Shown here piece by piece: positions 7,848-34,634 of a DNA stretch of 64,000 nt; position 1 is the first letter of the stretch, and every line of letters starts with the position of its first letter. The position numbers were made by a program, and so were the translations under genes. A model generated the notes under the pieces. It did not search any database, was not told where the DNA came from, and saw only the letters and a program-made list of their open reading frames with translations. Origin of the DNA: Planctomycetota bacterium (GTDB lineage: Bacteria > Planctomycetota > UBA1135 > UBA2386); contig JBKAGP010000001.1 of the NCBI GenBank assembly GCA_046290465.1, positions 2,976,001 to 3,040,000 on the forward strand. Direction: 5' to 3'.

Positions 7848-9251
7848 ATGAAGACGACAGCACAACGTCGGTGGACGCGAGTCCGCGTCGGCAACGCCCT
7901 CTGTTGCCTCCTACCCACGATTGCCGCGTGCAGCATGCATCCACGCACGACGCCCATCGGTCCGTACACCAGCGCACCAGCCGGAATGCGCGCCGAACGG
8001 CCGCAACTGCCCGACTTCACAATCAACTCCGATCTCGATACCTACATCCGGTACGCGCTACTGAACAACCCCGGCTTGGAAGCCGCGTTCCAGGACTACA
8101 TCGCCGCGATGGAGCGCATCCCCCAGGTGACGGCGCTCCCGGATCCGAGGTTCAGCTACCGGTACTACATCCAGGAAGTCGAGACCCGCGTCGGTCCGCA
8201 ACAGCACGCGTTCGGCCTATCACAGACACTGCCTTGGTTCGGCAAACTCGAGTTGCAGGGCCAGATCGCCTCGGGCGCTGCAGGTGCCGCTAAGGAGAGG
8301 TTCGAGGCGAAGAAAGACTCGCTTGTCGCAGAGGTCATCGATGCCTACCTGGAGTACTACCATCTGGGGCGTGCCGTCGAAGTCGTCCGCGGCAACCGCG
8401 ACCTCATCCAGCAGCTTGAGCGAGTAGCCCGCGCCCGCTACGGGGCAGGAGCCGCCAACCACCCCGATATCATCCGCGCCCAGGTGGAACTCGGCCAGCT
8501 GGAGAACCAGCTGGCCAGCCTGGACGATCGCAAGTCGCCATTCATCGCACGATTGAACGCGGCGCTCAATCGACGCAAATCGACTCCGATCCCGTTCCCA
8601 AAGAAGGCCGACGTCCATCCGCTCGGGGCCCCCGACGAAGAGGTTCTCGGGTGGATTGCCACCAGCAACCCGGAGCTCATGGCGATGCGGCACGAAATCG
8701 ACGCCGCAAGGGCAGCCGCCCTGCGTGCCGAGAAGGACTTCTACCCCGACTTCACCTTCGGTGTCGATTACCTGGCCACCGGCGATGCTCGCATGCCTGG
8801 AGTGGCGGGCAGCGGCGACGATGCCGTCATTGCTGGCGTCTCTTTCAATCTTCCAATTGCACGCGGCAAGTACAACGCGGCCGTTCGTGAAGCCAAAGCC
8901 CGCCAGTTTTCGACGGCACTGAGACGAGGAGACCTGCTCAACAAGCTTCAGGCAGAAGCGGCGACTGCGCTGTTCCGCATCCGCGACGCAGAACGACAGA
9001 TTGCCTTGTATCGCGACACACTGCTTCCCAAGGCGCGCGAGTCGCTCGCGACCACTCAGACAGCCTACAGCGCGGGGAATGGAAGCTTCTCCGACCTGGT
9101 GGATGCGCAGCGGATGCTGCTGTCCTTCGAACTGTCATTCGAGCGATCCCGTGCCGACCACGGACAGTGGCGAGCGGTACTCGAGCGCCTCGTCGGCCAC
9201 GCGATCCCCACGAAGAGCGCGGACGTGAAATCGTCCGACAAGGAGAAGTAG
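7848..9251 (+). CDS. TolC-family outer membrane efflux protein (CusC-like lipoprotein)
   Basis: Lipobox IAAC; OEP repeats (ALLNNPGLEAA, LSQTLPWFGK, SFNLPI); first gene of a tripartite efflux cluster. Confidence 0.92.
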   Translation: MKTTAQRRWTRVRVGNALCCLLPTIAACSMHPRTTPIGPYTSAPAGMRAERPQLPDFTINSDLDTYIRYALLNNPGLEAAFQDYIAAMERIPQVTALPDPRFSYRYYIQEVETRVGPQQHAFGLSQTLPWFGKLELQGQIASGAAGAAKERFEAKKDSLVAEVIDAYLEYYHLGRAVEVVRGNRDLIQQLERVARARYGAGAANHPDIIRAQVELGQLENQLASLDDRKSPFIARLNAALNRRKSTPIPFPKKADVHPLGAPDEEVLGWIATSNPELMAMRHEIDAARAAALRAEKDFYPDFTFGVDYLATGDARMPGVAGSGDDAVIAGVSFNLPIARGKYNAAVREAKARQFSTALRRGDLLNKLQAEAATALFRIRDAERQIALYRDTLLPKARESLATTQTAYSAGNGSFSDLVDAQRMLLSFELSFERSRADHGQWRAVLERLVGHAIPTKSADVKSSDKEK

Positions 9252-9255
9252 CAAG

Positions 9256-11595
9256 ATGAACGTAAGCAAGACCACCCGTCTGACCGCGCTGCTCGTCGCC
9301 ACAACCATCGCCGGGCTCGGAGTCGGCTACCTCCTATGGGGTGATGCAACACCGCCCACGCACCCCGAGCACTCGACGACTACGCACGAAGGCCATGCCG
9401 CTGCAGCCGAAGTGTGGACCTGCTCCATGCACCCACAGATCCGCATGCCATCGCAGGGCAAGTGCCCCATCTGCGGGATGGATCTCATCCGGGCCTCGAG
9501 CGGCGGCGACTCGGGTGGGCTACGACAACTGACGATACGTCCGGAACAGCGAGCCCTCATGCGCGTTCGAACCGTCCCCGTCGAGCGACGCTTCCCCGAT
9601 GCAAGGGTGCGCCTCGTCGGCAAGGTGACCTACGACGAGACACGACTCGGCTACATCACCGCTTGGGTTCCAGGGAGAATCGACGAGCTCTACGTAGACT
9701 TCACCGGGGTCACCGTGCGCAAGGGTGACCACATGGTGAAGCTCTACAGCCCTGAGCTCTATCGCGCGCAGGAGGAGCTGCTACAGGCGCTAGCATCGCT
9801 TGGAGACCTGCAGAAGAGCGAGTTCGAATCACTGAGAGCCTCGGCTCAGGGCACCATCGACTCGGCACGAGAGAAGCTGCGCCTCTGGGGCCTCTCGAAG
9901 GAGCAGATCTCGGCAATCGAGAAACGGGGATCTGCCGAGGAGCACGTCACGATCCACGCACCTTCATCCGGCCTCGTCATCCACCGTAGTGCCCAGGAGG
10001 GCATGTACGTGCAGACGGGAACGCGCATCTTCACGATCGCGGACCTCAGTCACGTCTGGGTGCAACTGGACGCATACGAGAGCGACCTGGAGTGGCTTCG
10101 ATATGGTCAGCAGGTCTCGTTCGAGACCGAGGCCTACGGCGGACGACGGTTCAACGGCCGAATCTCCTTCATCGACCCCGTCCTCGACCGTCGCACACGC
10201 ACCGTCAAGGTCCGCGTGAACGTGCCGAATCCCGACGGCCTGCTCAAGCCAGACATGTTCGTGCACGCAACCGTCGCGGCCCGGATCGCTGGCGCTGGCA
10301 AGGTCATGGATCCATCCCTCGTCGGAAAGTGGATCTCCCCCATGCATCCCGAGATCGTGAAGGACGGCCCCGGCAAGTGCGACGTGTGCGGCATGGATCT
10401 CGTCCCTGCCCACGAACTCGGCTACGTCCCCGCAACTGAAGTTCAGGACGAAGCCCCGCTCGTTGTGCCGGTCTCCGCCACCTTGGTGACCGGAACGCGC
10501 GCCATCGTCTACGTCGAGCTCCCCGACCGAGAGACTCCGACCTACGAGGGTCGGGAGGTCGTGCTCGGACCGAGAGCCGGCGACCAGTACGTCGTCCTTC
10601 ACGGCCTCCAGGAAAACGAGCTCGTGGTGGCCGAAGGCAACTTCAAGATCGACAGCGCTCTCCAGTTGCAGGCCAGACCGAGCATGATGAGCCCTGCGGG
10701 CGGCCAGCCCGCGGGCGGCCACAACCACGGCGGCGGAGCCGGAACGAAGCCAGCAACGATGCCCTCGGGTCAGAGCCACGCTTCCATGCTCTCGGCGGGC
10801 GCGCGGACTCGACTGCAGCTGATCGAGCGGGTCTACGCTGACATCACCGCGTCCGTAGATGCAGGCGACCTCCACGAAGCAAAACAACGGTTCGAGCAAC
10901 TCGGCAAGGCCGTTGCCGAAACCCGGATGCAGCTGTTCGAGGGGGATTCCCACAAGATGTGGATGGAGCTGTCGATGCGCCTGTCGAACGACGCATTCGA
11001 AGGCAGTGCTTCGCCTGACACGTCGACCGCGAAGTCAAACCTCGGGAAGCTCACCACGTCGGTCGAGATGATGCGGAAGCACTTCCAAACGACGGCAGAA
11101 TCCCCGTCAGGTACGCCCGTCGAGTTGCCGGAGGAGGTGCGCTCAGCGCTTCGACGGAACTGGGAGGCTTACTCTGATCTGCATTCGGCCCTCGCAGCTG
11201 ACGATCTCAGCAAGGCCAAGTCGGCAGCGTCGAAGCTGGCCGCCGCAACCGACGGCGTTTCGTCGACGTCTCTACCAGCACCGGCGCAAGTCGCGTGGCA
11301 ATCGTTGACGAACGCAGTGGTCACGAGCGCGCGCCAGATTTCCGAGGGCGACGACATCGAAGGTGCGCGAGCGGCGTTCGAGCAAGTGTCCAAGGGTATT
11401 GAAACGGCACTCCGCGCACTCGGTTCGCCTGCGAAGGTCCGTGTCATGCATTGCCCAATGGCATTCGACGGCCGCGGCGCGCGTTGGTTGCAGGGTTCGG
11501 ACGAGGTGCAGAACCCCTACTACGGCGCCAAGATGCTGGATTGCGGCTCCGCCATCGAAACCCTCGAGCCTCGCGAGGACCTCCGTGGCAAGTGA
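9256..11595 (+). CDS. cusB: CusB-type RND periplasmic adaptor with heavy-metal-binding domains and a C-terminal DUF3347-like region
   Basis: WTCSMHP..CPICGMDL and WISPMHP..CDVCGMDL; MFP core (YSPELY.AQEE, RTRTVKVR, LKPDMF); C-terminal CPMAF..W...NPYYG..ML.CG. Confidence 0.9.
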   Translation: MNVSKTTRLTALLVATTIAGLGVGYLLWGDATPPTHPEHSTTTHEGHAAAAEVWTCSMHPQIRMPSQGKCPICGMDLIRASSGGDSGGLRQLTIRPEQRALMRVRTVPVERRFPDARVRLVGKVTYDETRLGYITAWVPGRIDELYVDFTGVTVRKGDHMVKLYSPELYRAQEELLQALASLGDLQKSEFESLRASAQGTIDSAREKLRLWGLSKEQISAIEKRGSAEEHVTIHAPSSGLVIHRSAQEGMYVQTGTRIFTIADLSHVWVQLDAYESDLEWLRYGQQVSFETEAYGGRRFNGRISFIDPVLDRRTRTVKVRVNVPNPDGLLKPDMFVHATVAARIAGAGKVMDPSLVGKWISPMHPEIVKDGPGKCDVCGMDLVPAHELGYVPATEVQDEAPLVVPVSATLVTGTRAIVYVELPDRETPTYEGREVVLGPRAGDQYVVLHGLQENELVVAEGNFKIDSALQLQARPSMMSPAGGQPAGGHNHGGGAGTKPATMPSGQSHASMLSAGARTRLQLIERVYADITASVDAGDLHEAKQRFEQLGKAVAETRMQLFEGDSHKMWMELSMRLSNDAFEGSASPDTSTAKSNLGKLTTSVEMMRKHFQTTAESPSGTPVELPEEVRSALRRNWEAYSDLHSALAADDLSKAKSAASKLAAATDGVSSTSLPAPAQVAWQSLTNAVVTSARQISEGDDIEGARAAFEQVSKGIETALRALGSPAKVRVMHCPMAFDGRGARWLQGSDEVQNPYYGAKMLDCGSAIETLEPREDLRGK

Positions 11596-14500
11596 TCTCA
11601 CCAACGAACCGAAGTCGTTCCTGGACCGCCTGATCTGGTTCTGCCTACGGAAGAAGCTGATCGTCTTCCTCCTTGTGCTCGGCGTCATGGGATGGGGTGC
11701 GCTCGTCGCCCCGTTCGATTGGAAAGCAGGTGGCTTGCCACGCGATCCGGTTCCGGTCGACGCCATCCCCGACATCGGTGAGAACCAGCAGATCGTATTC
11801 ACCGAGTGGATGGGGCGATCGCCACAAGACGTCGAGGACCAGATCACCTACCCGCTCACCGTCGCGCTGCTCGGGCTGCCCGGTGTCAAGACGGTACGCA
11901 GTTACTCGTTCTTCGGCTTCTCGACCGTTTACATCATCTTCGATGAGGACATCGACTTCTACTGGAGCAGAAGCCGCGTCCTCGAGAAGCTCAACAGCCT
12001 GCCGAGAGGCACCTTGCCCGCGGACGTCCAGCCAGCGCTCGGACCGGACGCCACGGCACTGGGTCAGGTCTACTGGTACACACTCGAGGGGCGCGACCCC
12101 GACGGCAACCCCACTGGAGGATGGGGGCCACAGGAGTTGCGCAGTGTGCAGGACTGGTATGTCCGCTACACGCTGCTTGCTGCAGAAGGCGTAAGCGAGG
12201 TCGCCTCCATCGGTGGATTCGTCGAGGAATACCAGATCGACGTCGATCCGGACGCCATGCGGGCACACGGCGTCACGCTGGATCAGGTCTTCGCGGCAAC
12301 GAAGATGTCGAACCTCGACGTCGGCGCTCGCACGATCGAGGTCAGCCGAGCCGAGTATGTGATCCGCGGCCTTGGCTTCGTCAAGAACGTCGAGGACATC
12401 GAGGAGACCGTCGTACGTGTCAACGACAACGTGCCGATCCGCGTCCGCGATGTCGGCCATGTCACCAAGGGGCCCGCCCTGCGTCGAGGGGCGTTGGACA
12501 AGGGCGGCGCAGAAGCCGTTGGCGGTGTCGTTGTGGTCCGTTACGGCTTCAACCCGCTTCAGGCGATCAAGAACACCAAGGCGAAGATCGCGGAGATCGC
12601 CCCTGGACTGCCGACGAAGGCAATCGCTGACTTCACGGCAACGTCGAAAGACGCGCTACGCGGCTTCGCAGCCCTACAGGGGTTCGAGGCGTTCGATGGT
12701 GACGACCTCAACCAAGCGGCCTGGGTGCCGTTCTTGAGATCCAATGAGAAGTCGGCATGGCCTACCGGCGTGAACCTCAGCCAGGTGACCATCGTCCCGT
12801 TCTATGACCGAACGGACCTCATCTACGAGACTCTCGGCACGCTCAACTCAGCGCTCGTCGAGGAGATCCTCGTGACGATGATCGTGATGCTCATCATGGT
12901 GCTTCACCTGAGGAGCTCCTTGCTCATCAGCGCTTTGCTCCCAGTCGCCGTACTGATGTGCTTCATCGCCATGCGAACGTTCGGGGTCGCGGCGAACATC
13001 GTCGCGCTTTCGGGTATTGCAATCGCCATCGGCACGATGGTCGACATGGGCGTAATCATCTGTGAGAACGTCCTGCGCCACCTCAGGGAAGCGGATCCCG
13101 ACACACCTCCCATCGAGACGATCTTCCGTGCTACACGCGAGGTTGGCAGCGCCGTCATCACCTCCGTCGCGACGACCGTCGTCAGCTTCTTGCCCGTATT
13201 CACGATGACGGGCGCCGAAGGCAAGCTCTTCCAACCACTCGCCTTCACCAAGACGTTCGCCCTGGTTGCATCGATCATCGTCGCACTGACGGTGATCCCA
13301 CCGGCGGCCCACATCCTGTTCACGGGCTCGATTCGCTCGACGCGCACCAAGGCTCTCATGCATGCGGGGCTTGCCGCCGCAGGACTCGTCGTAGCTATCA
13401 CAACAAGCATCGTCGGAGGGAGTCTGCTCCTGGCATTTGCGGCATTCCAACTCCTCAAGAGCAGGATCCCGCGCTGGACCGGTAACTCGGGGCCGATCGT
13501 CGTCAGCCTGGCTGTTGCGCTATTCGTTCTGATCGAACTAACGCAATCGTGGCTACCGCTCGGTCCCAGTCGCGGGTTCCTCAAGAACCTGGCATTCGTC
13601 GGGGTTCTGATCGGCGGACTGCTAGGAACGTTCCTCGCCTTCCAACGCGTTTATCCGCGCGTCCTGCGATGGTGCCTGCGACACAAGCTCCTGTTCCTGT
13701 CGGCGCCAACCCTCATCGTCGCTCTCGGCGCCTGCTCCTGGTTCGGTTTCGATCGCGTCTTCGGCTTTGCGCCCGAGTTCATGCGACAGAGTGCACCCTG
13801 GCAACGGATGGCGAGCGTGTTCCCGGGGCTCGGCAAGGAGTTCATGCCACCACTGGACGAGGGCTCCTACCTGTTCATGCCGACGACACTCCCCCATGCG
13901 TCGATCGGTGAGTCCATGGAGGTCCTGCAGTATCAGGACACCTCCATCGCCAGGATACCGGAGGTCGAGTCAGTCGTCGGGAAGCTGGGTCGAGCTGAAA
14001 CTCCTCTTGACCCAGCCCCGATCTCGATGATCGAGACGGTCATCAACTATCGGCCCGAATACATCACCGATAAAGACGGAGACCGCATCAGCTTCCGCTT
14101 CGACGAGGAAACGGGCGAGTTTGCGAGAAACGAAGAAGGCGACCTGATCCCCGACACGAACGGACGCCCGTTCCGACAGTGGCGCGATCACATCAAATCT
14201 CCCGACGACATCTGGGACGAGATCGTCGCGGCATCCGAGATACCCGGCACGACATCTGCCCCGAAACTGCAGCCGATCGCGGCGCGCATCGTCATGTTGC
14301 AAAGCGGCATGCGAGCGCCGATGGGCATCAAGGTGAAAGGGCCCGATCTCGCTACGATCGAGGAGGTCGCCGTGCAGCTGGAGCGCTACCTGAAGCAGGT
14401 CCCAGGCGTATCCGCTCCGACGGTGACCGCCGACCGCCTGGTTGGCAAGCCCTACCTCGAGATCGAGCTCAACCGCAAGGCGCTCGGCAGGTATGGCCTC

Positions 14501-15505
14501 CATGTCGGCTCGGTGCAACAGGTCATCGAGGTAGCCATCGGCGGTAAGCGAATCACCACGACGGTCGAGGGTCGTGAGCGGTACCCGGTACGCGTCCGGT
14601 ATCTGCGGGAGTTGCGCGACACGCCCGAGAGCCTCGGAGAGATCCTTGTTCCCACTCCGACCGGCGCGCAGGTCCCGCTCTCTGAGCTCTCGGAGATTCG
14701 CTTCGTTCGCGGACCACAGGCCATCAAGAGTGAAGACACGTTCCTCATCGGCTACGTGGTTTTCGACAAGCAAGCGGACAGCGCAGAAGTCGACGTTGTT
14801 GAAGAATGCCAGGCGTTCCTACAGCAGAAGCTCGACTCCGGCGAGTTCGTACTGCCCGCCGGCGTGAGCTACAGCTTCTCCGGAAGCTACGAGAACCAAA
14901 TCCGATCCCAAAAGACGCTTGCGCTGGTCTTGCCCGTCGCGCTGTTCGTCATCTTCCTGATCCTCTACCTCCAGTTCGGTTCGGTCTCGACCTCGCTGCT
15001 GGTGTTTTCGGGCATCGTGGTCGCATGGGCAGGAGGCTTCCTCCTTATCTGGATGTACGGCATCGGAGGCTTCCTCGACATCGACCTGTTCGGCGAGAAT
15101 CTGCGCGCCCTCTTCCAGGTCGACACCATCAACCTGAGCGTCGCCATCTGGGTCGGATTCCTGGCCCTATTCGGCATCGCGTCAGACGACGGCGTCGTGA
15201 TGGCGACCTACCTCGAACAGAGTTTCCGCGGAGCACATCCGCGGTCTCGCGAAGACATACACAACTTGGTCGTGGAGGGAGCCAAGAAGCGTATCCGCCC
15301 CGCGCTCATGACGAGCGCGACGACGATCCTCGCACTCATCCCGGTCCTGACCTCGACGGGCCGCGGGTCCGACATCATGGTCCCGATGGCCATCCCTTCT
15401 TTCGGTGGGATGCTGATCGCCATGCTCACGGTATTCGTCGTACCCGTGCTCTACTGCACCATCAAGGAGCGGCGGCTCGGTAGCCAGCACACGACGACGG
15501 GCTGA
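11585..15505 (+). CDS. cusA: CusA/SilA-family heavy-metal RND permease (1306 aa)
   Basis: VDAIPDIGENQQIVFTEWMGRSPQDVEDQITYPL, GTMVD, EFMPPLDEG, RIRPALMT; GTG 11585 has an upstream GAGG and overlaps the cusB stop. Confidence 0.93.
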   Translation: MASDLTNEPKSFLDRLIWFCLRKKLIVFLLVLGVMGWGALVAPFDWKAGGLPRDPVPVDAIPDIGENQQIVFTEWMGRSPQDVEDQITYPLTVALLGLPGVKTVRSYSFFGFSTVYIIFDEDIDFYWSRSRVLEKLNSLPRGTLPADVQPALGPDATALGQVYWYTLEGRDPDGNPTGGWGPQELRSVQDWYVRYTLLAAEGVSEVASIGGFVEEYQIDVDPDAMRAHGVTLDQVFAATKMSNLDVGARTIEVSRAEYVIRGLGFVKNVEDIEETVVRVNDNVPIRVRDVGHVTKGPALRRGALDKGGAEAVGGVVVVRYGFNPLQAIKNTKAKIAEIAPGLPTKAIADFTATSKDALRGFAALQGFEAFDGDDLNQAAWVPFLRSNEKSAWPTGVNLSQVTIVPFYDRTDLIYETLGTLNSALVEEILVTMIVMLIMVLHLRSSLLISALLPVAVLMCFIAMRTFGVAANIVALSGIAIAIGTMVDMGVIICENVLRHLREADPDTPPIETIFRATREVGSAVITSVATTVVSFLPVFTMTGAEGKLFQPLAFTKTFALVASIIVALTVIPPAAHILFTGSIRSTRTKALMHAGLAAAGLVVAITTSIVGGSLLLAFAAFQLLKSRIPRWTGNSGPIVVSLAVALFVLIELTQSWLPLGPSRGFLKNLAFVGVLIGGLLGTFLAFQRVYPRVLRWCLRHKLLFLSAPTLIVALGACSWFGFDRVFGFAPEFMRQSAPWQRMASVFPGLGKEFMPPLDEGSYLFMPTTLPHASIGESMEVLQYQDTSIARIPEVESVVGKLGRAETPLDPAPISMIETVINYRPEYITDKDGDRISFRFDEETGEFARNEEGDLIPDTNGRPFRQWRDHIKSPDDIWDEIVAASEIPGTTSAPKLQPIAARIVMLQSGMRAPMGIKVKGPDLATIEEVAVQLERYLKQVPGVSAPTVTADRLVGKPYLEIELNRKALGRYGLHVGSVQQVIEVAIGGKRITTTVEGRERYPVRVRYLRELRDTPESLGEILVPTPTGAQVPLSELSEIRFVRGPQAIKSEDTFLIGYVVFDKQADSAEVDVVEECQAFLQQKLDSGEFVLPAGVSYSFSGSYENQIRSQKTLALVLPVALFVIFLILYLQFGSVSTSLLVFSGIVVAWAGGFLLIWMYGIGGFLDIDLFGENLRALFQVDTINLSVAIWVGFLALFGIASDDGVVMATYLEQSFRGAHPRSREDIHNLVVEGAKKRIRPALMTSATTILALIPVLTSTGRGSDIMVPMAIPSFGGMLIAMLTVFVVPVLYCTIKERRLGSQHTTTG

Positions 15506-15562: not shown

Positions 15563-15587
15563 GCCAACGCCACGTCGTGGCGTTGGC
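15563..15587. terminator. Perfect hairpin between convergent genes (probable terminator)
   Basis: GCCAACGCCAC-GTC-GTGGCGTTGGC, an 11-bp perfect stem; no strong U-tract. Confidence 0.5.
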
Positions 15588-15640
15588 CTTGCATTGGCCC
15601 GCAGCCAGCGCCCGGGGCCCGATCGTCTAGCCGACCCAGC

Positions 15641-16264
15641 TCAGAGCTTCTTCTCGGCCTTGATGCCTGGTTTGGCAGCCTTCTTCGCCGCCGGTTTCTT
15701 CTCGACCAAGGCGAAGGAGCTCACCTTGAACTTCGTGTCTGCAAGTGCCTTGACGACAGCCTCGCGAGTGAGCGAGCCCTTCTTCATGGCTACGGTCACG
15801 GCCTTGGCCTTGAGGTCGACTTCGACGCTATTCACACCCGCGATCTTGGCGAGGGTCTCACGGACCCCCGAGGCGCAACCGCCTCAAGTCATTCCCGTCA
15901 CGCCCACGACGTAGACGCCCTTCGGAGTCATGCGCGTAGCCTTGACCGACGCGAAGGAGCTCACCTTGAACTTGGTGTCCACGAGCGCCTTGACGACAGC
16001 TTCGCGCGTCAGCCCCCCCTTCTTCATGGCTACGGTCGCGGTCTTGGCTTTGAGGTCGATCTCGACGCTCTTCACGCCTGCGATCTTGGCGAGGGTCTCA
16101 CGGACCCCCGAGGCGCAACCGCCTCAGGTCATCCCCGTCACGCCGACGACGTATGTGGCCGGGGTAGTCGACTTCGCCGCAGGAACGTTCTTGGTCTCCT
16201 GAGCGATTGCTTGGACGCCTCCAAAGACGACTCCGCATAGCAGTGCGAGCACGGTGGTTCTCAT
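15641..16264 (-). CDS. Secreted tandem heavy-metal-associated (HMA, CopZ/MerP-like) protein with two in-frame UGA codons; probable selenoprotein (207 aa; Sec47 and Sec127)
   Basis: One frame reads MRTTVLALLCGVVFGGVQAIAQ...YVVGVTGMT*GGCASGVRETLAKIAGVKSVEIDL...VYVVGVTGMT*GGCASGVRETLAKIAGVNSVEVDL...KKL; each TGA (16126-16124, 15886-15884) sits at the first Cys of the GMxCxxC motif; alternative start at 16276. Confidence 0.88.
15840..15886 (-). promoter_or_regulatory. Putative bacterial SECIS element 2
   Basis: Identical over 47 nt to element 1, while the rest of the 240-bp repeat has diverged. Confidence 0.72.
16080..16126 (-). promoter_or_regulatory. Putative bacterial SECIS element 1
   Basis: UGA followed by the hairpin CGGGGGUC-CGUGA-GACCCUCG; apical loop begins 21 nt after UGA and has G at position 2 followed by U. 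Confidence 0.72.
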
Positions 16265-16798
16265 ATGTCCTCTCATGGATCTCTCTCGACTGGGCTAGGC
16301 GGATGCACGGCCGAGATAACGCGAAAGCGCCTCACCCTGACAACCAGGTGCCGCTCAGGAAATCCACCTGAAGGAGTCCCAGGGGCCGCAATGTAGGCGA
16401 AACTCATCCGAGCGCAACGGCCGCAGGCGCGGAGCTAGCCTCACGCCGGCCACTTGATCGCCGCTGGTTCGGCATGACGAACGACTTCTCCCCCGAATGA
16501 TCCCGCTCGCCAAGTGTGGTCTGTGCCAGTTTAGGGCCATCCGCGATCTAGCGCTGGAACGAGACGCCCTTCGACTGCCTCCCCGCAAGCGCCACGTCTG
16601 CCTCTGGGCTCCAACATCCGGCCCGAAGAGGGCCGAAAGCGCATTCTCGTCGTCATGGGCGCGGCGCATGAGGTACGAGGGAGCTCCTCGCGATCGCTGA
16701 TGGTCAGCTCAGAAGCGCGTAAATCCCGATCCCAAGGGGCCTTGACCCGCCCTCGGACCACCTCCTGGTGACTTCCCACGAGAGTTTCATTCAGCAAC

Positions 16799-16839
16799 TT
16801 GCCCTGCGCGGTCGATTCATCATATACTGAAATGATGAA
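16799..16839 (+). promoter_or_regulatory. Sigma-70 promoter with an overlapping ArsR/SmtB-type operator
   Basis: TTGCCC-N18-TATACT; inverted repeat TTCATCAT-N8-ATGATGAA (16816-16839) covers the -10 box and the start codon. Confidence 0.7.
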
Positions 16840-17230
16840 CGATACGCCGAAGTCGAAGAGCCCCAAGGCCCGCGAGGGGGCCTGCGAGATCAACCAGGTC
16901 GATTGCTCGATGGTCTCGGAAGCTCAGGCGTCGCTTCCCGCAACCACAGAGCTCCAACGAGTCGCTGACGCCTTTCGAGTCCTCGCGAACCCGAACCGGT
17001 TGCGCGTACTGAAGGCCCTTCAGGGTCGGGAGCTGTGTGTCTGCGACCTCCGTGAAGTGCTCGGGATCTCCATGTCCGGCACCTCGCAGGTCCTCCGAGA
17101 GCTGCGCAACCTCGGAGCAGTTGAGTTCCGCGCCGAAGGCAAGCTCGCCTACTACCGGCTAGCCGACTCGTCATGGCTCGACATTGCCGAGAGCGTGCTT
17201 GAGAAGTTCGTGGGTGCCGAAGCGAGATAG
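16832..17230 (+). CDS. ArsR/SmtB-family metalloregulator (CadC-like, N-terminal Cys)
   Basis: ACEINQVDC; FRVLANPNRLRVL..L...ELCVCDL; GKLAYYRL. Confidence 0.93.
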   Translation: MMNDTPKSKSPKAREGACEINQVDCSMVSEAQASLPATTELQRVADAFRVLANPNRLRVLKALQGRELCVCDLREVLGISMSGTSQVLRELRNLGAVEFRAEGKLAYYRLADSSWLDIAESVLEKFVGAEAR

Positions 17231-17270
17231 CGCTCGCCCGTTTTTCGCGACGAGGGAGAGAACGATTGTG

Positions 17271-18872
17271 ATGTCTACCAACAAACGAGGAAGGTCTTGG
17301 TTTCTTGCCGGCATGCTCGCCTTGAGCGTTGCCCTTTCCGGTTGTGGGCAGGAGCCCTCTCCTGGTCCTGGTTCCGAACCTGCTGCAGGTGAATCGACCG
17401 CGACTGGCAGGAATCCGACGAGCACCGCACACAAGCACGACACACCCGGCGAGACGTGCTTCATCTGTGATCCAAGCAAGCGTGAGTCAGGACGCCTGTG
17501 GTGCAAGGAGCACGGCCGTTACGAGAATCGATGCTGGATGTGCCAGCCGCAGCTCGAGGAGAAGGGCCGCCTCTACTGCGAAGAGCACGGCCTCTACGAG
17601 GACGAGTGCTTTCTCTGCCATCCCGAGCTGAAGAAAGACTCCAAGGACGAGAAGCAGCCGAAGGACAAGAAGGGCGCGCAACTGGATGCTCCCCCCCGCA
17701 CTGTTCCAGGTCTTTTCTGTAAGGAACACGGGGTGCCGGAGGCGGATTGCGGCATCTGCCAACCACAACGCACGGCAGAACTGCAGCCAGGCGACGAACT
17801 CAAGGTGCGTTTCGAGTCGGCCCGTGCAGCTGCGAAGGCAGGTGTGCAGACAGTTCCCGCCCGCCAGGCCACGGTGCGGGAAAGCGTTCCGGCCATCTGC
17901 GAGATCTCCTACAACCAGAATGCTCTGGCCCGCATCACGCCACTGGCCGCGGGGATCGTGCGCAAAGTGCTCGTCGATGTCGGTGCGGACGTGAAGGCGG
18001 GAGATGTTCTGGTGGAAGTGCACTCCACCGAAGTAGCGAGCGCGAAGGCTGCGTTCGTCTCGTCCGTGGTCGACCTCGACCTGAAAGAGGTTGCCTGCAA
18101 GCGAGAGAAGCGCCTGGCGAAGAAGAGCATCTCTTCGGAGAAGGAGGTGCAGGAGGCCGATGCTGCGTGCAAGACCGCTGAGCTCACGCTGAGTACAGCA
18201 AGACAGAGACTCCTCAACTATGGCTTCACGGCGGATGAGGTTGCAGCGATCAAGAAGGATCGCGACACCTCAGCTCGCTTGTTGGTCCGCGCTCCATACG
18301 AGGGCACATTGGTCGAGAGAAGTGCGGTGGTCGGCGAAGCTGTTGAGCCAGGCAAGAGCGTATTCTCTCTCGCGGATCTCGGCTCGATGTGGCTCTCGCT
18401 CTCGATCCCTGCCGATCGCGCGGGTCTCATCAAGAGTGGTCTGAGCGTGGAGGCGACCTTCCACGGCCTTTCCAGCGAGGCGTCACGTGGTGAGATCACA
18501 TGGGTCAACACCTCGATCGACGAGAAGACTCGCATGCTGCGGGCACGTGCCGTGGTCGGCAACCCTGACCGGAAGCTCAGCGCAGGGATGTTCGGCGACG
18601 CGATCGTCTTCACTTCGGATGCCAGAAGCGCAGTGGATGTGCCCAAGGAAGCCATCCAGCGGTTCGAGAAGAAGCTCTACGTCTTCGTCAAACTCGAAGA
18701 CGACCTCTACTCGTTGCGTCGCGTCGCCACGGTCGAGCGACCGTCGAACAACATCGTTGCGGTGGTCGAAGGTCTGCGCGCGGACGAACCTGTTGTTGCT
18801 ACAGGAGCATTCACCGTGATGTCCGAGTTCCTCAAGTCGAGGCTCGGCGCTGGCTGTGTCGATGACAAGTGA
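17271..18872 (+). CDS. RND periplasmic adaptor (CzcB-like lipoprotein) with N-terminal Cys/His repeats
   Basis: Lipobox LSGC; three CxEH-x6-CxxC repeats; MFP core (VKAGDVL, VRAPYEG, KTRMLRAR, LSAGMFG). Confidence 0.9.
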   Translation: MSTNKRGRSWFLAGMLALSVALSGCGQEPSPGPGSEPAAGESTATGRNPTSTAHKHDTPGETCFICDPSKRESGRLWCKEHGRYENRCWMCQPQLEEKGRLYCEEHGLYEDECFLCHPELKKDSKDEKQPKDKKGAQLDAPPRTVPGLFCKEHGVPEADCGICQPQRTAELQPGDELKVRFESARAAAKAGVQTVPARQATVRESVPAICEISYNQNALARITPLAAGIVRKVLVDVGADVKAGDVLVEVHSTEVASAKAAFVSSVVDLDLKEVACKREKRLAKKSISSEKEVQEADAACKTAELTLSTARQRLLNYGFTADEVAAIKKDRDTSARLLVRAPYEGTLVERSAVVGEAVEPGKSVFSLADLGSMWLSLSIPADRAGLIKSGLSVEATFHGLSSEASRGEITWVNTSIDEKTRMLRARAVVGNPDRKLSAGMFGDAIVFTSDARSAVDVPKEAIQRFEKKLYVFVKLEDDLYSLRRVATVERPSNNIVAVVEGLRADEPVVATGAFTVMSEFLKSRLGAGCVDDK

Positions 18873-18883
18873 ACGGGGACTCC

Positions 18884-21800
18884 ATGCTTGAGCGCCTCGT
18901 CGAGTTCTCACTTCGCAACCGCCTCCTGTTCTTGCTGCTGGGATTTGCCCTGGTCGGCGGCGGGATCTACACGGCAACGCGTACGCCAGTTGACGCCTTC
19001 CCGGACACAACACCCGTCCAGGTCCAGATCAACACCGTGGCCCCCGCGCTCAATCCGGAAGAGATTGAGCAGCAGCTCACCCTTCCAGTCGAGCTCTCGA
19101 TCGGCGGTCTTCCTGGTCTGGCCGATGTTCGTTCCATATCCAAGTTTGGACTGTCCCAGGTCGTCGCGACGTTCGATGACGACACGAGGATCATCGATGC
19201 GCGCCAGTACGTCTCCGAACGACTGGCGACAGTAGAGCTTCCCGAAGGCATTGAGCGTCCGCAGCTCGGCCCCATCTCCACCGGGCTCGGAGAGATCTTC
19301 CACTACGTCCTTCGTTCGGAGAACCCGCGCAGGACGCTCGAAGAGCTGCGAACCCTTCACGACTGGGTCGTCAAACCGGAGCTCCGCAAGGTTCCTGGTG
19401 TCGCTGAGGTCAACTCGTGGGGCGGGTACGAGAAGCAGTACCACGTGGTTGTCTCGCCCGAGGCGTTGCTCAAATACGACCTCACCCTTGGGGACGTCTT
19501 CGAAGCGCTCGAGAAAAACAATCAGAACGTCGGTGGTGGCGTGCTCACGTCGGGTGGGCAGTCGCAGCTCGTGCATGGCCTCGGGCGTGTTTCAACCGTC
19601 AACCAGATCGAGAACATCGTTGTCTCCGCATTCGACGGTGCGCCGATCCGCATTCGAGATGTCGCGCAAGAGGTTCGGGTCGACCACGAGATCCGGCGCG
19701 GTGCGGTCACGGCGAACGGTCGCGGCGAAGTCGTGCTAGGCCTTGCTTTCATGCTGATGGGCGAGAACGCCCAGGCCGTCACCGAAGAGCTCAAGGAGCG
19801 GCTCGTAGGTGTCCGGAGATCGCTCCCCGAAGACGTTGTCGTTGAAGTCGTCTACGACCGCACCGAGCTGACAACCGAGGTGATCGGAACCGTGCAGCAC
19901 AACCTGTTGGCCGGAGCCTTGCTCGTCATCGTCGTGCTCTTCGTACTGCTTGGCAACATTCGCGGCGGTCTCCTGGTAGCCCTCGCCATCCCACTCGCGA
20001 TGTTGTTTGCCTTGATCGGCATGTACCACTTCGCGATCGCGGCAAGCCTCCTCAGCCTTGGTGCAATCGACTTCGGCATCATCGTCGACGGCTCGGTGGT
20101 GATGACCGAGGCCAACATGCGGAACCTGGCTCAGCGTGCGCGTGAGCTGAAGAGACCGCTGACCAAAGATGAGCGTCTCGCGGTCATCACCGAGTCGGGC
20201 AAGCAGGTGGCTCGACCGATCGTCTTCGGCATGGCCATCATCATGGTGGTCTTCTTCCCCGTGCTCGCGCTCGAGGGAATCGAAGGAAAGATGTTCCGCC
20301 CGATGGCGTGGACGTTCATCTTCGCCCTTGGCGGGGCACTGCTGATCGCCCTCACCCTGTCACCGGTCCTTGGCTACTACTTCCTTCCGAAGCGTGTTCG
20401 GGAGCGAGAGGGTGTTATCGCTCGCGCGATGAACGGCGCCTTTGCCTGGTTCCTTGCGGCAGCGATGCGGCTGCGGTGGTTCGTTCTCAGCGGAGCGATG
20501 CTGCTTCTAGTGTTCGCCGGATGGACTGCGACACGGCTGGGAGGAGAGTTCATCCCGCGCTTGAGCGAGGGGGCGGTGGTCTTGAACACCATCCGCCTGG
20601 CCGGTGTCTCTATTGAGGAGTCCGTTCGCTACAACACGCGCATCGAGAAGCTCTTGCTCGAGAACTTTCCGGACGAGGTTCGGCACGTCTGGAGCCGCAT
20701 CGGGACAGCTGAAATCGCCACTGACCCCATGGGCACCGAGCTGACCGACATCTTCTTGTCGCTCAAGCCCCGAAGCGAATGGAAGAGGGCCAGCACGCAG
20801 ACTGAGCTCGGCGCTGCCATGCAGAGCCTGGTGGACGACCTACCCGGCGTGAACATCATCGCAACCCAGCCGATCGAGATGCGCCTCAACGAGATGGCGT
20901 CGGGCATCCGTTCAGACATCGGCATCAAGATCTACGGCGACGACTTCGACGAGCTCGTGCGCATCAGTGACGAGGTACAGCGCATTCTTGTCGACATCCC
21001 CGGACAGTCAGACGTCGCTGTCGATCAGGTCACGGGGCAACCAACGCTCCGCATCCGCATGGACCCCGACGCACTTGCCCGCGTTGGAGTGTCAGGACGG
21101 GAAGTGCTCGAGTTCGTGGAGGTCATCGGGACACGCCGTGTCGGCGAAGTCTTCGAGGGACAACGTAAGTTCCCGTTGGCTGTCCGGTTGCCGGATTCCC
21201 ACCGGGGCGATGCCGACGCTCTACGTGCGACGCTGATTCCAACGAAATCTGGGCTTCGCCTACCTCTGCGAAGCGTGGCTGACGTCTCAGAAGAAGAGGG
21301 CATCTCGACGATCAACCGTGAGTGGGGTCGAAGGCTGATCCGCGTCCAGTGCAACGTAGCCGGCCGCGATGTTGCCTCGTTTGTTGAGGAAGCGCAGACG
21401 CGGATCGCCAACGAACTGGAGCTCCCCGATGGCTACGTCATCAACTGGGGCGGTCAGTTTGAGAATCTGGCCAACGCGAAGGTGCGGTTCATGATCGTTG
21501 TTCCGGTCACGCTCCTTCTCGTGTTCTTCCTGCTGTTCTTCAGCCTGAAGAGTCTTCGGGAGGTCCTGCTGATCTATACCGGGATTCCCTTCGCCGCTGT
21601 CGGAGGTGTCTTGGCGCTCTGGCTGCGCGGAATGCCGTTCAGCGTGAGCGCCGCCGTGGGCTTCATCGCGCTCGGAGGCATCGCCGTCTTGAACGGACAG
21701 ATCCTCGTATCGGCCATTCGCTCTTTCCTTGCTCAGGGCAACGAGCTCCGTTCGGCGATCACAGAAGCCACACAGCAACGGCTTCGTCCCGTTCTGGCGA

Positions 21801-21997
21801 CGGCTATCACGGATGCTGTCGGTTTTCTTCCGATGGCGATCTCCACGGGAGTCGGTGCCGAGGTGCAGCGACCACTTGCGACGGTTGTGGTGGCAGGTGT
21901 GCTGACGTCAACCGTCCTGACTCTCTTTGTGCTGCCGATCCTCTACCTGCTTGTCATGAAGAAGGTCCCAGCAACAACCGACGGGGAGGTTGCGTAG
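18884..21997 (+). CDS. czcA: CzcA-family heavy-metal RND permease
   Basis: PVDAFPDTTPVQVQINT, SLGAIDFGIIVDGSVV, GIAVLNG, RLRPVL, GAEVQRPLATVV. Confidence 0.93.
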   Translation: MLERLVEFSLRNRLLFLLLGFALVGGGIYTATRTPVDAFPDTTPVQVQINTVAPALNPEEIEQQLTLPVELSIGGLPGLADVRSISKFGLSQVVATFDDDTRIIDARQYVSERLATVELPEGIERPQLGPISTGLGEIFHYVLRSENPRRTLEELRTLHDWVVKPELRKVPGVAEVNSWGGYEKQYHVVVSPEALLKYDLTLGDVFEALEKNNQNVGGGVLTSGGQSQLVHGLGRVSTVNQIENIVVSAFDGAPIRIRDVAQEVRVDHEIRRGAVTANGRGEVVLGLAFMLMGENAQAVTEELKERLVGVRRSLPEDVVVEVVYDRTELTTEVIGTVQHNLLAGALLVIVVLFVLLGNIRGGLLVALAIPLAMLFALIGMYHFAIAASLLSLGAIDFGIIVDGSVVMTEANMRNLAQRARELKRPLTKDERLAVITESGKQVARPIVFGMAIIMVVFFPVLALEGIEGKMFRPMAWTFIFALGGALLIALTLSPVLGYYFLPKRVREREGVIARAMNGAFAWFLAAAMRLRWFVLSGAMLLLVFAGWTATRLGGEFIPRLSEGAVVLNTIRLAGVSIEESVRYNTRIEKLLLENFPDEVRHVWSRIGTAEIATDPMGTELTDIFLSLKPRSEWKRASTQTELGAAMQSLVDDLPGVNIIATQPIEMRLNEMASGIRSDIGIKIYGDDFDELVRISDEVQRILVDIPGQSDVAVDQVTGQPTLRIRMDPDALARVGVSGREVLEFVEVIGTRRVGEVFEGQRKFPLAVRLPDSHRGDADALRATLIPTKSGLRLPLRSVADVSEEEGISTINREWGRRLIRVQCNVAGRDVASFVEEAQTRIANELELPDGYVINWGGQFENLANAKVRFMIVVPVTLLLVFFLLFFSLKSLREVLLIYTGIPFAAVGGVLALWLRGMPFSVSAAVGFIALGGIAVLNGQILVSAIRSFLAQGNELRSAITEATQQRLRPVLATAITDAVGFLPMAISTGVGAEVQRPLATVVVAGVLTSTVLTLFVLPILYLLVMKKVPATTDGEVA

Positions 21998-21998
21998 C

Positions 21999-23408
21999 AT
22001 GGCAACAACTACCAGATTGGAGACTGGGCGGCTCCGTCGGCAAACGCTCGTGGCCGCTGCTGTGGCGCTGCTAGTCACCTTGAGCGGATGTGCCACTGTA
22101 GACCCAACGCCGGATTACGAACTAGCGCGAGAGGAGGTAAAGGCAGCGACCGGCGAAGACACCCTCTATCAGCCCGGAGAGGAAGAGCGTGCGCGCAAGC
22201 TGGTTGCAGAGCTCATGAAGGATGGGTTGACCTCAAAGGACGCAGTCCAGATTTGCCTTCTCAACAATCGACTTCTGCAGCAACAGCTCTACGAGATCGG
22301 TGTGCGGCGTGCGGATGCAGTGCAGGCTGGATTGCTCTCGAACCCGTCGCTCCAACTGATGGTGCGCTTCCCACTCGATGGAGGAAGCACGAACATGGAG
22401 GGCGGACTTCTCCACAATCTCATCGAGCTCTGGCACTTGCCCGCGCGCACGAGGGTTGCGGAAAGCCAAGTAGACCGAACCGTGCTCGAGGTTGCTCGCC
22501 GCGCGGTCACGCTCGCGGCTCAGGCGAAGTCGGCGTACTTCACGGCCGTTGCTTCGAGTGCTTCTCTCGCTGTTGCAGAAGAGAATCTCAAGACCGCACA
22601 GGAGTTCCTCGAACTCACGCGTGAACGCAAGGCTGCCGGTGCTGCGACGCAGGTTGACGAGAACGCCGCGCGCGCCGGTTTCCTCGAGCAACAGGTGCTT
22701 GTTCGTTCCACAAGCTTCGCTTCGTTTGAAGCGAAACGACGCCTGGCGATGGTGCTGGGTGTTTCCGTACCGCCGCAGGAACTTGAGCTCACGAGTCCAC
22801 CACTCACGCCACCGGAGTGGAGCGTTGACCTCAAGAGACTGCTCGCAGTTGCCGAAGAACACCGGCTTGACCTGCGCGCGGCGAAGAAGGCCGTCGAGGC
22901 CGCAGGCAACGCAGTGCCTCTTGAGCGGCGTCGGCAGCTGCGCAAGCTAGGTGGTGGCTTGGCCTTCGAAACGGTCGGCAGCGATGTAGAACTGGGTCCA
23001 GCATTCCGGCTTGAGATTCCGATCTTCGACCGAAACCAAGCACAGATTGCCAAGGCCGAGTTGCGCTTCTCTCAGGCGATACGTCGCCTTGAGGGAGTGT
23101 CCGAGAACGTGTCCCAACAAGTACGGGGTGCGTACGAACGCTACGCGATGGCGCAGGAAACCGCTCGCCTCTACCAGAAGGAGCTCTTGCCGCTTCAACA
23201 AGCCAGCCTTGACCTTGCCCGAGAGTCGTTCGCGGCAGGCAAGACAGGCTTTCTATCTGTCCTCGAGGCTCAGAACCGACTTCTTGCCACTCGGCGTGAC
23301 TATGTCGTACGGCTTGAGTCTGTGGCCCAGAGCATCCCCGAGCTGGAGGCTGCTTGTGGGCGACCGCTCGACGTGCTCCTTGCTACGGATGCGGATCGTG
23401 ACAAGTGA
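21999..23408 (+). CDS. TolC-family outer membrane efflux lipoprotein
   Basis: Lipobox LSGC; QAGLLSNP, IPIFDRNQAQIAKAE. Confidence 0.9.
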   Translation: MATTTRLETGRLRRQTLVAAAVALLVTLSGCATVDPTPDYELAREEVKAATGEDTLYQPGEEERARKLVAELMKDGLTSKDAVQICLLNNRLLQQQLYEIGVRRADAVQAGLLSNPSLQLMVRFPLDGGSTNMEGGLLHNLIELWHLPARTRVAESQVDRTVLEVARRAVTLAAQAKSAYFTAVASSASLAVAEENLKTAQEFLELTRERKAAGAATQVDENAARAGFLEQQVLVRSTSFASFEAKRRLAMVLGVSVPPQELELTSPPLTPPEWSVDLKRLLAVAEEHRLDLRAAKKAVEAAGNAVPLERRRQLRKLGGGLAFETVGSDVELGPAFRLEIPIFDRNQAQIAKAELRFSQAIRRLEGVSENVSQQVRGAYERYAMAQETARLYQKELLPLQQASLDLARESFAAGKTGFLSVLEAQNRLLATRRDYVVRLESVAQSIPELEAACGRPLDVLLATDADRDK

Positions 23409-24027
23409 TCAGGCGCGGACAGCAACGCTCATGCGCGCAGCGAGCCTCGCCTACCTGACAATCGGCTGGAATGTCGTCGAGGGTGTCATCGCCGTTTCCG
23501 CAGCGGCTGCTGCTGGGAGTGTCGCGCTGCTCGGCTTTGGCCTTGATAGCTTCGTAGAGAGCGCCTCTGGTTTGATCGTTCTGTGGAGACTCTCTCGAGA
23601 ACGGCGCAACACGGCCGTTGCGGCGGAAGCTGTCGAGAAGCTCGACCGCCGGGCGCATCGCCTGGTGGCCGGCACCTTGTTTCTCCTTGCTGCCTACGTC
23701 TCCGTGGATGCTGGATTCGCGCTGTGGAACGGGGATCGCCCTGAGACGAGCGTCGTCGGGATCATTCTTGTCTCAGTCTCGATCGCAGTCATGTGGTGGC
23801 TAGCGCGTGCAAAATCGTCCGTGGCACGTGTTCTGGGGAGCCGAGCGCTTGAAGCCGACTCCTTTCAGACCCTGGCATGCTGGTGGCTTTCGATCGTCGC
23901 CCTGTCAGGGATTGTTCTCAACGCCGCGTTCGGTTGGTGGTGGGCAGACCCTCTTGCGGCCCTAGGGGTCGCAGCCCTTGTTGTTCGCGAGGGTACCGAA
24001 GCTTGGCGTGGTGAGGCGTGCTGCTGA
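23398..24027 (+). CDS. Cation transporter (CDF-like TM domain only), C-terminal Cys-Cys
   Basis: LTIGWNVVEG, SVALLGFGLDSFVE, ALEADS, GWWWADP; GTG 23398 overlaps the tolC stop. Confidence 0.85.
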   Translation: MTSDQARTATLMRAASLAYLTIGWNVVEGVIAVSAAAAAGSVALLGFGLDSFVESASGLIVLWRLSRERRNTAVAAEAVEKLDRRAHRLVAGTLFLLAAYVSVDAGFALWNGDRPETSVVGIILVSVSIAVMWWLARAKSSVARVLGSRALEADSFQTLACWWLSIVALSGIVLNAAFGWWWADPLAALGVAALVVREGTEAWRGEACC

Positions 24028-26494: not shown

Positions 26495-26935
26495 CTAGTG
26501 GTCTTCGTGGTGGTGCTCGAGTGCGGGGTTGTAGTTCTTCCCGCCAATCTCGATAGAGATCCGCCCCTCTGGGCCATGTTCCTTCAGAGCAGGGTCTGTC
26601 ACGGCAAAGGCTCCGGCCTCACCGCTGACCGCAGTTGTCGAGAGCACCTTGGGTCCCGAGTCCGTCGTCAGTTTGACTTGCGGGGCTTTTGCGCCCGTGA
26701 AGGCTGACTTCGCGTCCGGACCAAGAACGTAGATGGTCATCTTCCCCGCGGATTCGTCGTGCATGACTTCCAGATGCGCGACATGGTCACCCACCTCGAG
26801 AAGGTGGCCACCGTGCGGGCCTTCGTGGCCGTGCGCAGCTACACCGGACTTGCCTGGCTTTTCTTCGTGCTTCTCGTCGGAACAAGATGCAACGACAAGC
26901 AGCATCGGGAGTGCGATCGAAACGAACTTCATCAT
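26495..26935 (-). CDS. His-rich lipoprotein, putative periplasmic metal-binding protein
   Basis: Lipobox VASC; HGHEGPHGGHLLE, C-terminal HHHEDH; overlaps the RND stop. Confidence 0.8.
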   Translation of the reverse strand: MMKFVSIALPMLLVVASCSDEKHEEKPGKSGVAAHGHEGPHGGHLLEVGDHVAHLEVMHDESAGKMTIYVLGPDAKSAFTGAKAPQVKLTTDSGPKVLSTTAVSGEAGAFAVTDPALKEHGPEGRISIEIGGKNYNPALEHHHEDH

Positions 26936-30180: not shown

Positions 30181-30192
30181 CTGCCATCCCTC

Positions 30193-33835: not shown

Positions 33836-33923
33836 CTCAGTTTAGGCATCGGGCACCTTCCCGACAACAGTTGAGTACATTTCGGCCTATCGTAGCGGAA
33901 GTCCGACTCCCAAGCCGCAGCAG

Positions 33924-34587: not shown

Positions 34588-34634
34588 GCTTCCCAAGCTG
34601 AATGTCGTCGGTTCGATCCCGATCACCCGCTCCA
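34588..34634 (+). mobile_element. 3' fragment of tRNA-Gly(CCC), probable att site (island boundary)
   Basis: GC-TTCCCAA-GCTGA-ATGTC-GTCGG-TTCGATC-CCGAT-CACCCGC-T-CCA covers the anticodon loop, T-arm, 3' acceptor strand and CCA; no 5' acceptor strand or D-arm upstream. Confidence 0.85.

Follow-up and report, generated by a model that had tools for sequence, protein, structure and literature searches.

The window analysed here, a stretch of 64,000 nucleotides from contig JBKAGP010000001.1 (positions 2,976,001 to 3,040,000) of a Planctomycetota bacterium (genome G000), contains a minus-strand gene that encodes two HMA domains and carries an in-frame TGA codon in each of them. The frame (16264-15641) comprises 207 codons and a terminal TGA, and its two internal TGA codons, the only ones, fall at codons 47 (16126-16124) and 127 (15886-15884), each within a G-M-T-[TGA]-G-G-C loop. 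Under translation table 11 the frame holds no open reading frame (ORF) of 80 or more amino acids. An earlier annotation made from the letters alone (the sequence-only reading) had proposed that the frame starting at ATG 16264 encodes a signal peptide ending in AIA before Q, two HMA domains and a Lys/Ala tail, 207 residues in all, and the frame, its hydropathy and a PF00403 score of 81.9 bits in two stretches (gathering cut-off 24.8, U read as C) confirm this. Alignment with the metal-binding domains of ATP7B likewise bears out its proposal that the TGA codons replace the first Cys of both metal loops, since each TGA aligns with the first Cys of GMTCxxC; the loop-5 Phe is also retained. The predicted signal peptide begins with M-R followed by a run of hydrophobic residues (Kyte-Doolittle means over 11 residues reach 2.75), and the pattern of A-x-A followed by Q at the cleavage site is seen again in homologues. 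With the signal peptide removed, the computed mature chain has 186 residues, a mass of about 19.2 kDa and a pI of about 10. A single-sequence AlphaFold model predicts two ferredoxin-like beta-alpha-beta-beta-alpha-beta domains with disordered ends and the metal loop after strand 1, and the top Foldseek matches of this model are tandem ATP7B and CopA domains, MerP (1OSD) and CopZ.

The pair of TGA codons is neither chance nor a sequencing error. Genome G088, a single contig from another genus of the same family, carries an identical copy of the gene (624 of 624 bases). Both TGA codons are covered by contigs of the two DNA runs examined (X1 and X9) with no other letter at those sites, so that TGC or TGT, which the sequence-only reading had named as possible true letters, does not occur there, and each run has one contig that spans the unique sequence separating the repeats. 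X1 and X9 come from different studies, and one of the two runs could be the source of the window itself. The stretch is contained wholly or partly in 20 of 24 listed runs from 13 studies, and 14 of the runs contain at least half of its words. Contigs of RNA runs X15 and X16 cover only 15599-16345; these do not demonstrate transcription, since the contigs come from runs that were found with this stretch.

The host genome (6.59 Mb, 70% GC, 94% complete) encodes the machinery for selenocysteine (Sec) insertion, which the sequence-only reading had proposed to look for. Homologs of selA (453 bits, cut-off 268), selB (354, cut-off 242) and selD (352, cut-off 125) score over the curated cut-offs, the selD gene itself carries a TGA with a matching hairpin, and tRNA-Sec(UCA) is encoded along with tRNA-Trp(CCA). 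TGA is the commonest stop codon of the genome, ending 1205 of 2083 long ORFs, and this, together with the presence of tRNA-Trp(CCA), indicates that UGA is not reassigned genome-wide, a possibility that had also been raised. Each internal UGA is followed at 21 nt by a hairpin with an energy of about -16 kcal/mol (39-nt stretch). According to PMC13188914, a bacterial selenocysteine insertion sequence (SECIS) has a loop of 3-9 nt with a G in the first two loop positions and a stem of 4-16 bp, lies 16-37 nt from the UGA and has a minimum free energy of -7.5 kcal/mol or lower; both hairpins conform to this model.

Comparison across the family shows the hairpin to be a property of Sec sites. Stems of at least 6 bp occur at 82 of 108 distinct Sec sites and at 0 of 16 Cys sites of HMA domains, under a rule that accepted a loop 14-37 nt past the codon and is thus slightly looser than the published model. 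The mean stem at Sec sites is 6.6 bp, as opposed to 3.4 bp in shuffles. At true terminal TGA stops of the genome a stem of at least 6 bp is found in 199 of 1205 cases, and the stem score at the gene's own terminal stop is 3. When 12 sites (11 of them distinct) are aligned on the loop codon, 94.8% of cells are paired, slid controls drop to 30-47% pairing and two-sided changes are seen at six of the seven pairs. None of 500 shuffles reaches the covariation score, a figure that is not a probability, because the aligned rows are related to one another and also served to draw the structure. The loop codon, CGT, accounts for 8.5% of the genome's Arg codons. The ratio of nonsynonymous to synonymous change (dN/dS) against the relative L152 is 0.17 before the first TGA, 0.19 beyond it and 0.16 beyond the second, and the two domains pooled give 0.17, so the parts past the TGA codons are under purifying selection equal to that before them; whole-gene rows were set aside because a one-codon indel had shifted the register. 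The selenocysteine interpretation of the sequence-only reading is thus supported by the machinery, the covarying hairpins, dN/dS and the homologues, and the two Sec insertions almost certainly yield the full-length preprotein of 207 residues, a conclusion for which the computational support is strong.

Table 1. Features of the Sec-HMA gene and its surroundings (window positions)
Feature	Position	Strand	Remarks
Coding sequence	15641..16264	-	207 aa and terminal TGA; alternative in-frame start ATG 16276
Predicted Sec/SPI signal peptide	16202..16264	-	residues 1-21, cleavage A-I-A before Q; from sequence pattern and hydropathy
HMA domain 1	15953..16156	-	about residues 37-104; loop G-M-T-U-G-G-C; loop-5 Phe retained
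Inferred selenocysteine, TGA codon 47	16124..16126	-	
SECIS 1	16090..16110	-	8-bp stem, 5-nt loop CGUGA, 21 nt past UGA
HMA domain 2	15713..15916	-	about residues 117-184; loop G-M-T-U-G-G-C
Inferred selenocysteine, TGA codon 127	15884..15886	-	
SECIS 2	15850..15870	-	sequence equal to SECIS 1; 21 nt past UGA codon 127
Lys/Ala/Pro-rich basic tail	15644..15706	-	low model confidence, probably disordered
Upstream region	16265..16429	-	about 85% conserved with the genome G011 copy; probable own promoter and leader
Perfect 12-bp inverted repeat	15563..15587	.	partly kept in G011; candidate terminator between the gene and the convergent cusA-like gene; no U tract
CusC/CusB/CusA-like RND efflux operon	7848..15505	+	convergent with the gene
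ArsR/SmtB regulator, CzcB/CzcA/CzcC-like operon (to 23408) and CDF transporter	16799..24027	+	divergent from the gene
Right attachment site	34591..34634	+	copy of the tRNA-Gly(CCC) 3' end

The closest relatives of the gene form a clade consisting of the window copy, those of G088, G011 and L151-L154, and the first domains of L074 and L130. TGA is present at every site seen, none of these close homologues has Cys, and sequence is conserved on both sides of the TGA, which answers the question of homologues posed by the sequence-only reading. A metagenome scan with a Cys-specific pattern gave only two weak, unrelated stretches. More widely, a 16-domain profile matches 90 of 151 genomes of the order, a TGA-containing match is found in at least 63 of the 151 (hand count, 150 of 165 matches listed), and in a sample of the phylum 82 of 301 genomes match at E 1e-7 with TGA and Cys forms both present. 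Among 79 genes of the family, 74 pass a crude, home-made signal-peptide rule, some calls of which are clearly wrong in either direction, 22 have a lipobox and 30 have two Sec domains. The supposition that an exported, doubly recoded tandem form is unusual therefore does not hold, since TGA relatives are widespread in the order, many of them tandem and mostly with export signals. Within the order, co-occurrence with selA is uninformative because selA is present in 146 of 151 genomes (72 of 72 high-quality ones); the TGA-bearing genome G109 (89% complete) has no selA match. One relative, MEE9392018.1, is entered at NCBI as the piece that follows its TGA. A word-indexed protein search with the read-through protein returned 390 candidates, none at E 0.001, and is uninformative because the databases hold the gene in pieces. 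No match was found in the plasmid collection at E 1e-10.

A tree of 67 domains over 70 columns (9 of 76 rows were dropped because they did not match the profile), in which the deep forks are open, places the two domains of the window gene and that of G011 in one clade (100/87), which L074 and L130 join (99/92). The tree also supports two pairs of Sec and Cys sisters, namely L131 with P0015 and two genes of L100. Cys counterparts of this exported architecture are P0079, P0015 and L010. The G011 and L153 copies show only one domain, and origin of the tandem by recent duplication from the one-domain form of G011 was rejected, as L152 is 99.6-99.9% identical to the G011 contig and yet has both domains. 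The one-domain forms more likely represent collapsed assembly or deletion between the repeats, and since L152 keeps two domains, the tandem is older than the one-domain forms. Domains within one gene differ at 7, 11 or 22 of 201 bases, the last figure being that of the window gene, and the window differs from L151 and L152 at 17-25. These differences point to repeats that have been homogenised or repeatedly duplicated.

Other members of the family vary in domain number and loop. Three-domain exported forms have Sec in each domain (L126, P0007). Two Sec residues occur in one loop of exported relatives as UxxxU (L106, L108, L114, L120, L121, L132, L134, L141 and L149) or UxxU (L138, L145, L146 and L147), and the SECIS of these proteins is located elsewhere or is different, since the rule applied from the first TGA mostly fails there. 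L079, L080 and L155 are one-domain exported relatives (UxxxC) from two genomes of Candidatus Binatia, where tatC/DUF4911 lies on one side and a BamD-like gene on the other; L155 is a Cys version of this type. The host chromosome itself has a paralogue, L032 (G000:C1:1515985-1516452, plus strand), an exported tandem HMA-like protein with a lone Sec per domain. In many of the family's genomes this type of gene adjoins those for DUF885 and PEP carboxykinase. Two small lipoprotein genes, L072 (G000:C1:3251155, plus strand) and L071 (3216888, minus strand), have Sec HMA-like loops, UASCC and ULQC, with a similar type of hairpin. A scan of the genome for coding-like TGA codons with a hairpin gave 41 sites, about 25 of which look like selenoproteins by eye; judging from their motifs, the apparent families are TlpA/thioredoxin-like proteins, peroxiredoxin, MsrA-like proteins, rhodanese, deiodinase-like proteins, AhpD-like proteins and FG-GAP propellers.

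The host of the gene is an integrative mobilisable element that was recently transferred. The element is 77.5 kb long with about 62% GC, compared with 70% for the genome, and occupies G000:2933119-3010634, which corresponds to window positions 1-34634 plus some 43 kb that precede the window. It starts at tRNA-Gly(CCC) (G000:2933119) and carries a tyrosine integrase, an excisionase-like gene, a TrwB-like coupling protein, a TrwC relaxase and attachment repeats at the tRNA, which confirms the probable mobile island of the sequence-only reading. No mating-pair genes were found among 23 ORFs scanned, 8 of which have no Pfam match. At least 72 kb of the element is 99.96-99.99% identical in G088, and the identity ends at the attachment site. 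The two island copies differ by an insertion of about 69 bp in the cusA-like region of the window (11800-11870) and one of 1.4 kb in G088 (L084:2352-3773). A HamA gene lies beside a helicase gene on the element, a pair that we take to be Hachiman-like.

Cargo of the island includes a multicopper oxidase, CopA, three resistance-nodulation-division (RND) pumps, a cation diffusion facilitator (CDF) and a Zn/Cd-type ATPase, and the gene is flanked by a Cus-like and a Czc-like operon as had been described. The third RND efflux operon (26935-33272, minus strand) has an atypical adaptor of 541 residues that lacks a Pfam match. Near the island end, at 33871-34260 (plus strand), is a thioredoxin-like remnant with a WCGPC site that is out of frame and is probably a broken gene. 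A second Sec-HMA gene, L083 (G000:C1, about 2970840-2971143, minus strand, TGA at 2971017), is present on the island. Its product is a lipoprotein with the loop UGGC, and the hairpin of the gene matches as well; the gene lies, in the same orientation, downstream of copA, of the gene for an extracytoplasmic function (ECF) sigma factor and of a small gene with a Cys-rich product. Near the G011/L152 copy of the window gene there is a multicopper oxidase gene, and the other flanking genes differ from those in the window. Since the region 16265..16429 is conserved in G011 despite the different neighbours, it is probably the gene's own promoter and leader. Scans for sigma-70 promoters and terminators found nothing fitting the gene, with no sigma-70 consensus upstream on the minus strand, and Rfam gave no matches within the 64-kb window.

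The window protein shares its fold, the GMT-x-x-x-C loop and the loop-5 Phe with MerP, CopZ, Atx1, CopA and ATP7B (PF00403). It resembles MerP (PDB 1OSD) in combining an HMA domain with a signal peptide, the latter identified by pattern, and CopA and ATP7B domains 5-6 in its tandem arrangement. It differs from the known HMA proteins, which have Cys first in the loop, in having Sec in both domains and in being a stand-alone, apparently exported tandem. Models for individual families are not reached: the protein scores 58 bits against the MerP model TIGR02052 (cut-off 92.55), and 84.2 (cut-off 85) and 82.2 (cut-off 91) with its two domains summed against the CopZ models NF047957 and NF033795, CopZ being a single-domain protein that lacks an export signal. 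In the genome, which is 94% complete, MerT, a MerA over its cut-off and CusF were not found, and without these mer partners MerP-type mercury import is unlikely. With CusF, the periplasmic Cu(I)/Ag(I) chaperone of CusCBA, the window protein has only the proposed role in common, as a small exported protein encoded next to a Cus-like pump. The fold of CusF is another one, its ligands are Met, His and Trp, and PF11604 has no match in the window protein.

Selenoproteins with related domains have been catalogued. The UxxU metal-binding (seleno)protein model NF041115 describes an HMA-like fold with two Sec residues, and Sec in the metal loop, as in the window protein; the NF041115 model, 74 positions long, has both Sec residues in a single UxxU loop, whereas the window protein combines a signal peptide with two domains that carry one Sec each (UxxC), and at 70.7 bits it does not reach the cut-off of 95. 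Among 25 scanned relatives, the NF041115 cut-off is reached only by P0007, which has three domains (97.9, summed domains), the Cys tandem P0079 passes a CopZ model (summed domains) and nine match nothing at E 1e-6. The MerT/CopZ fusion-like selenoprotein NF045683 also bears Sec and has a CopZ-like domain, but the window protein lacks the MerT membrane domain and scores 53.2 bits against a cut-off of 375. The UxxC motif of the E1-E2 ATPase selenoprotein presumably lies in an HMA-type domain. That protein, listed in Table 1 of PMC13188914, shares UxxC with the window protein but is a membrane ATPase, whereas the window protein is predicted to be exported and has no ATPase part. That table comprises 119 families, including a mercuric transport protein, the UxxC E1-E2 ATPase and NF041115, which is labelled there as 'putative mercuric reductase' with two Sec; an exported stand-alone or tandem HMA selenoprotein does not appear in its accessible part. 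SaoB, SaoC and SaoX are exported as well, and Sec has been proposed as their heavy-metal ligand; according to that report (bioRxiv 10.1101/2022.07.06.499078) they have other folds and CU/CC motifs and belong to a conserved nine-gene operon in anaerobes, in contrast to the window family, which lacks a conserved operon. No literature on the family was found in the accessible parts of the sources consulted (including PMC9312934, PMC13326102 and PMC1976440), a term search of PMC12013277 gave no match, and BSepDB and Haft and Tolstoy 2025 could hold relatives. The window protein belongs to no catalogued Sec-HMA family.

A function in handling soft metals can be proposed for the protein. At each UGA the in-frame hairpin, 21 nt further on, would recruit SelB-GTP-Sec-tRNA for the insertion of selenocysteine. 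Judging from sequence pattern and model, the signal peptide would then direct the preprotein through the Sec translocon to give a basic 19-kDa periplasmic protein. The U-G-G-C loop of each domain would supply a selenium and a sulfur ligand at the position of the linear S-metal-S site of MerP, CopZ and ATP7B, and the fold and motif suggest that each domain would bind a soft metal, with Cu(I) and Ag(I) as the likeliest ions. A selenolate is a softer ligand than a thiolate and stays ionised at periplasmic pH, so that a protein with two such Se/S sites would act like a periplasmic soft-metal sink or chaperone. Up to this point, an exported Cu(I)/Ag(I) binder, the reading appears reasonably probable. 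The protein may also deliver its metal, Cu(I) or Ag(I), to the neighbouring CusCBA-like pump; no CusF was found in the genome, but a hand-off in place of CusF is speculative and rather unlikely.

Several observations weigh against this interpretation. For the gene taken by itself, folding z-scores of the two hairpins are modest (-2.3 and -1.3, over 80 nt), synonymous shuffles match the hairpin in 3 and 6 of 200 cases (0.015 and 0.03), the two hairpin copies are not independent, the minimum-energy fold has a competing hairpin over part of the UGA, and a stem of at least 8 bp follows 54 of the 1205 true terminal TGA stops of the genome. Evidence from the hairpin is modest for the single gene and strong across the family. 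The structure model is of moderate confidence (mean predicted local distance difference test, pLDDT, of 68 and predicted template modelling score, pTM, of 0.39). When 109 Sec sites of the family were typed, 59 were lone Sec, 40 UxxxC, 5 UxxC and 5 UxxxU, and with only 5 UxxC sites the family overall does not keep the canonical two-ligand site. As the gene is convergent to one efflux operon and divergent from the other, it belongs to neither. A Cus-, Czc-, CopA- or oxidase-type gene is present in the short flanks of only 1 of 94 Sec-HMA loci (median locus 2.6 kb), and among four longer loci one (G011, with an oxidase) matches the metal proteins of the island. Pfam scans of 85 and 137 neighbouring frames (the latter taken from 163 picked, antisense and short ones being excluded) gave mixed functions with few, scattered metal-related matches. 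The Cus/Czc setting emphasised in the sequence-only reading is true of this island and is not family-wide; because that position is particular to the island, the protein is a putative metallochaperone by its fold and motif.

Of the alternatives, it is highly improbable that the locus is a pseudogene or that both TGA codons are ordinary stops. TGA is indeed the commonest stop of the genome and mobile islands carry broken genes, as exemplified by the frameshifted thioredoxin-like remnant at 33871-34260, but in both domains, as in over 100 homologous ones, TGA takes the place of the same Cys, the hairpin covaries and dN/dS is 0.17 downstream. Just as remote is the prospect that UGA is read as Trp or Cys through genome-wide reassignment or suppression. 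Database relatives P0007 and P0087 carry W at these sites, which most simply reflects a gene caller that applied a UGA=Trp code, and the cluster of such records also holds pieces of 38, 66 and 81 residues. The frequent use of TGA as a stop, the presence of both tRNA-Trp(CCA) and tRNA-Sec(UCA), and the alignment of the TGA codons with Cys and not Trp all argue against this possibility.

Accepting a selenoprotein, the main rival is a redox role, in which the Sec-Cys pair would cycle between selenol-thiol and selenenylsulfide in the periplasm with the HMA fold as a mere scaffold, for example in oxidant scavenging or in exchange with exported thioredoxin-like selenoproteins. Most relatives have lone Sec, UxxxC or UxxxU and lie away from metal genes, and many Sec candidates that resemble thioredoxin, peroxiredoxin or MsrA and share this hairpin were recognised by eye in the genome. 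The fold matches include MerP in an oxidised structure, and most uncharacterised selenoproteins are probably redox proteins according to PMC13188914. Such a role nevertheless seems unlikely, as the subfamily of the window protein retains the full GMT-x-G-G-C loop and the loop-5 Phe and two separate Sec-HMA genes are found on one heavy-metal island, one of them directly in a copA string. Alternatively, the gene could encode a real selenoprotein and metal binder that is carried as a self-contained cassette and has no working link to the Cus and Czc pumps, which overlaps with the soft-metal interpretation and differs from it in the partner step only. The segment shared with G011 comprises the gene, about 165 bp before it and 80 bp after it; in G011 the flanking genes differ, and the neighbours of L074 are unrelated. 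Location within about 30 kb of metal-resistance genes, the second Sec-HMA gene and the failure to find CusF point the other way, and this passenger status is quite possible, if on balance doubtful. The soft-metal binder thus stands as the preferred interpretation, with its partner left to the more speculative step.

The locus is a real, intact, doubly recoded gene for a tandem-HMA selenoprotein, predicted from its sequence pattern to be exported, on a heavy-metal element. A broader reading would join these results into a large, uncatalogued Planctomycetota family of cell-envelope Sec-HMA proteins, with soluble and lipoprotein forms, one to three domains, and loops of the types UxxC, UxxxC, UxxU, UxxxU and lone Sec; the member described here would be a selenium-based CusF substitute that takes up Cu(I) or Ag(I) at its Se-S sites and feeds an RND pump, and the mobile element that spreads it between genera would depend on the Sec machinery and SECIS compatibility of the recipient. 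Taken as a whole, that joint reading is improbable. Sec in an HMA loop has so far been known only as predictions, in other architectures. As natural Sec and Cys versions of a small domain exist, their affinity, selectivity and oxidation resistance are directly comparable, and the family offers a clean test of Sec as a metal ligand for trafficking or detoxification against Sec in redox catalysis. The near-identical island in two genera indicates that UGA-recoding genes can move horizontally as cargo, and the bacterial selenoproteome is enlarged by a family of exported HMA proteins with multiple Sec residues, common in a major aquatic phylum, whose genes are truncated by gene callers.

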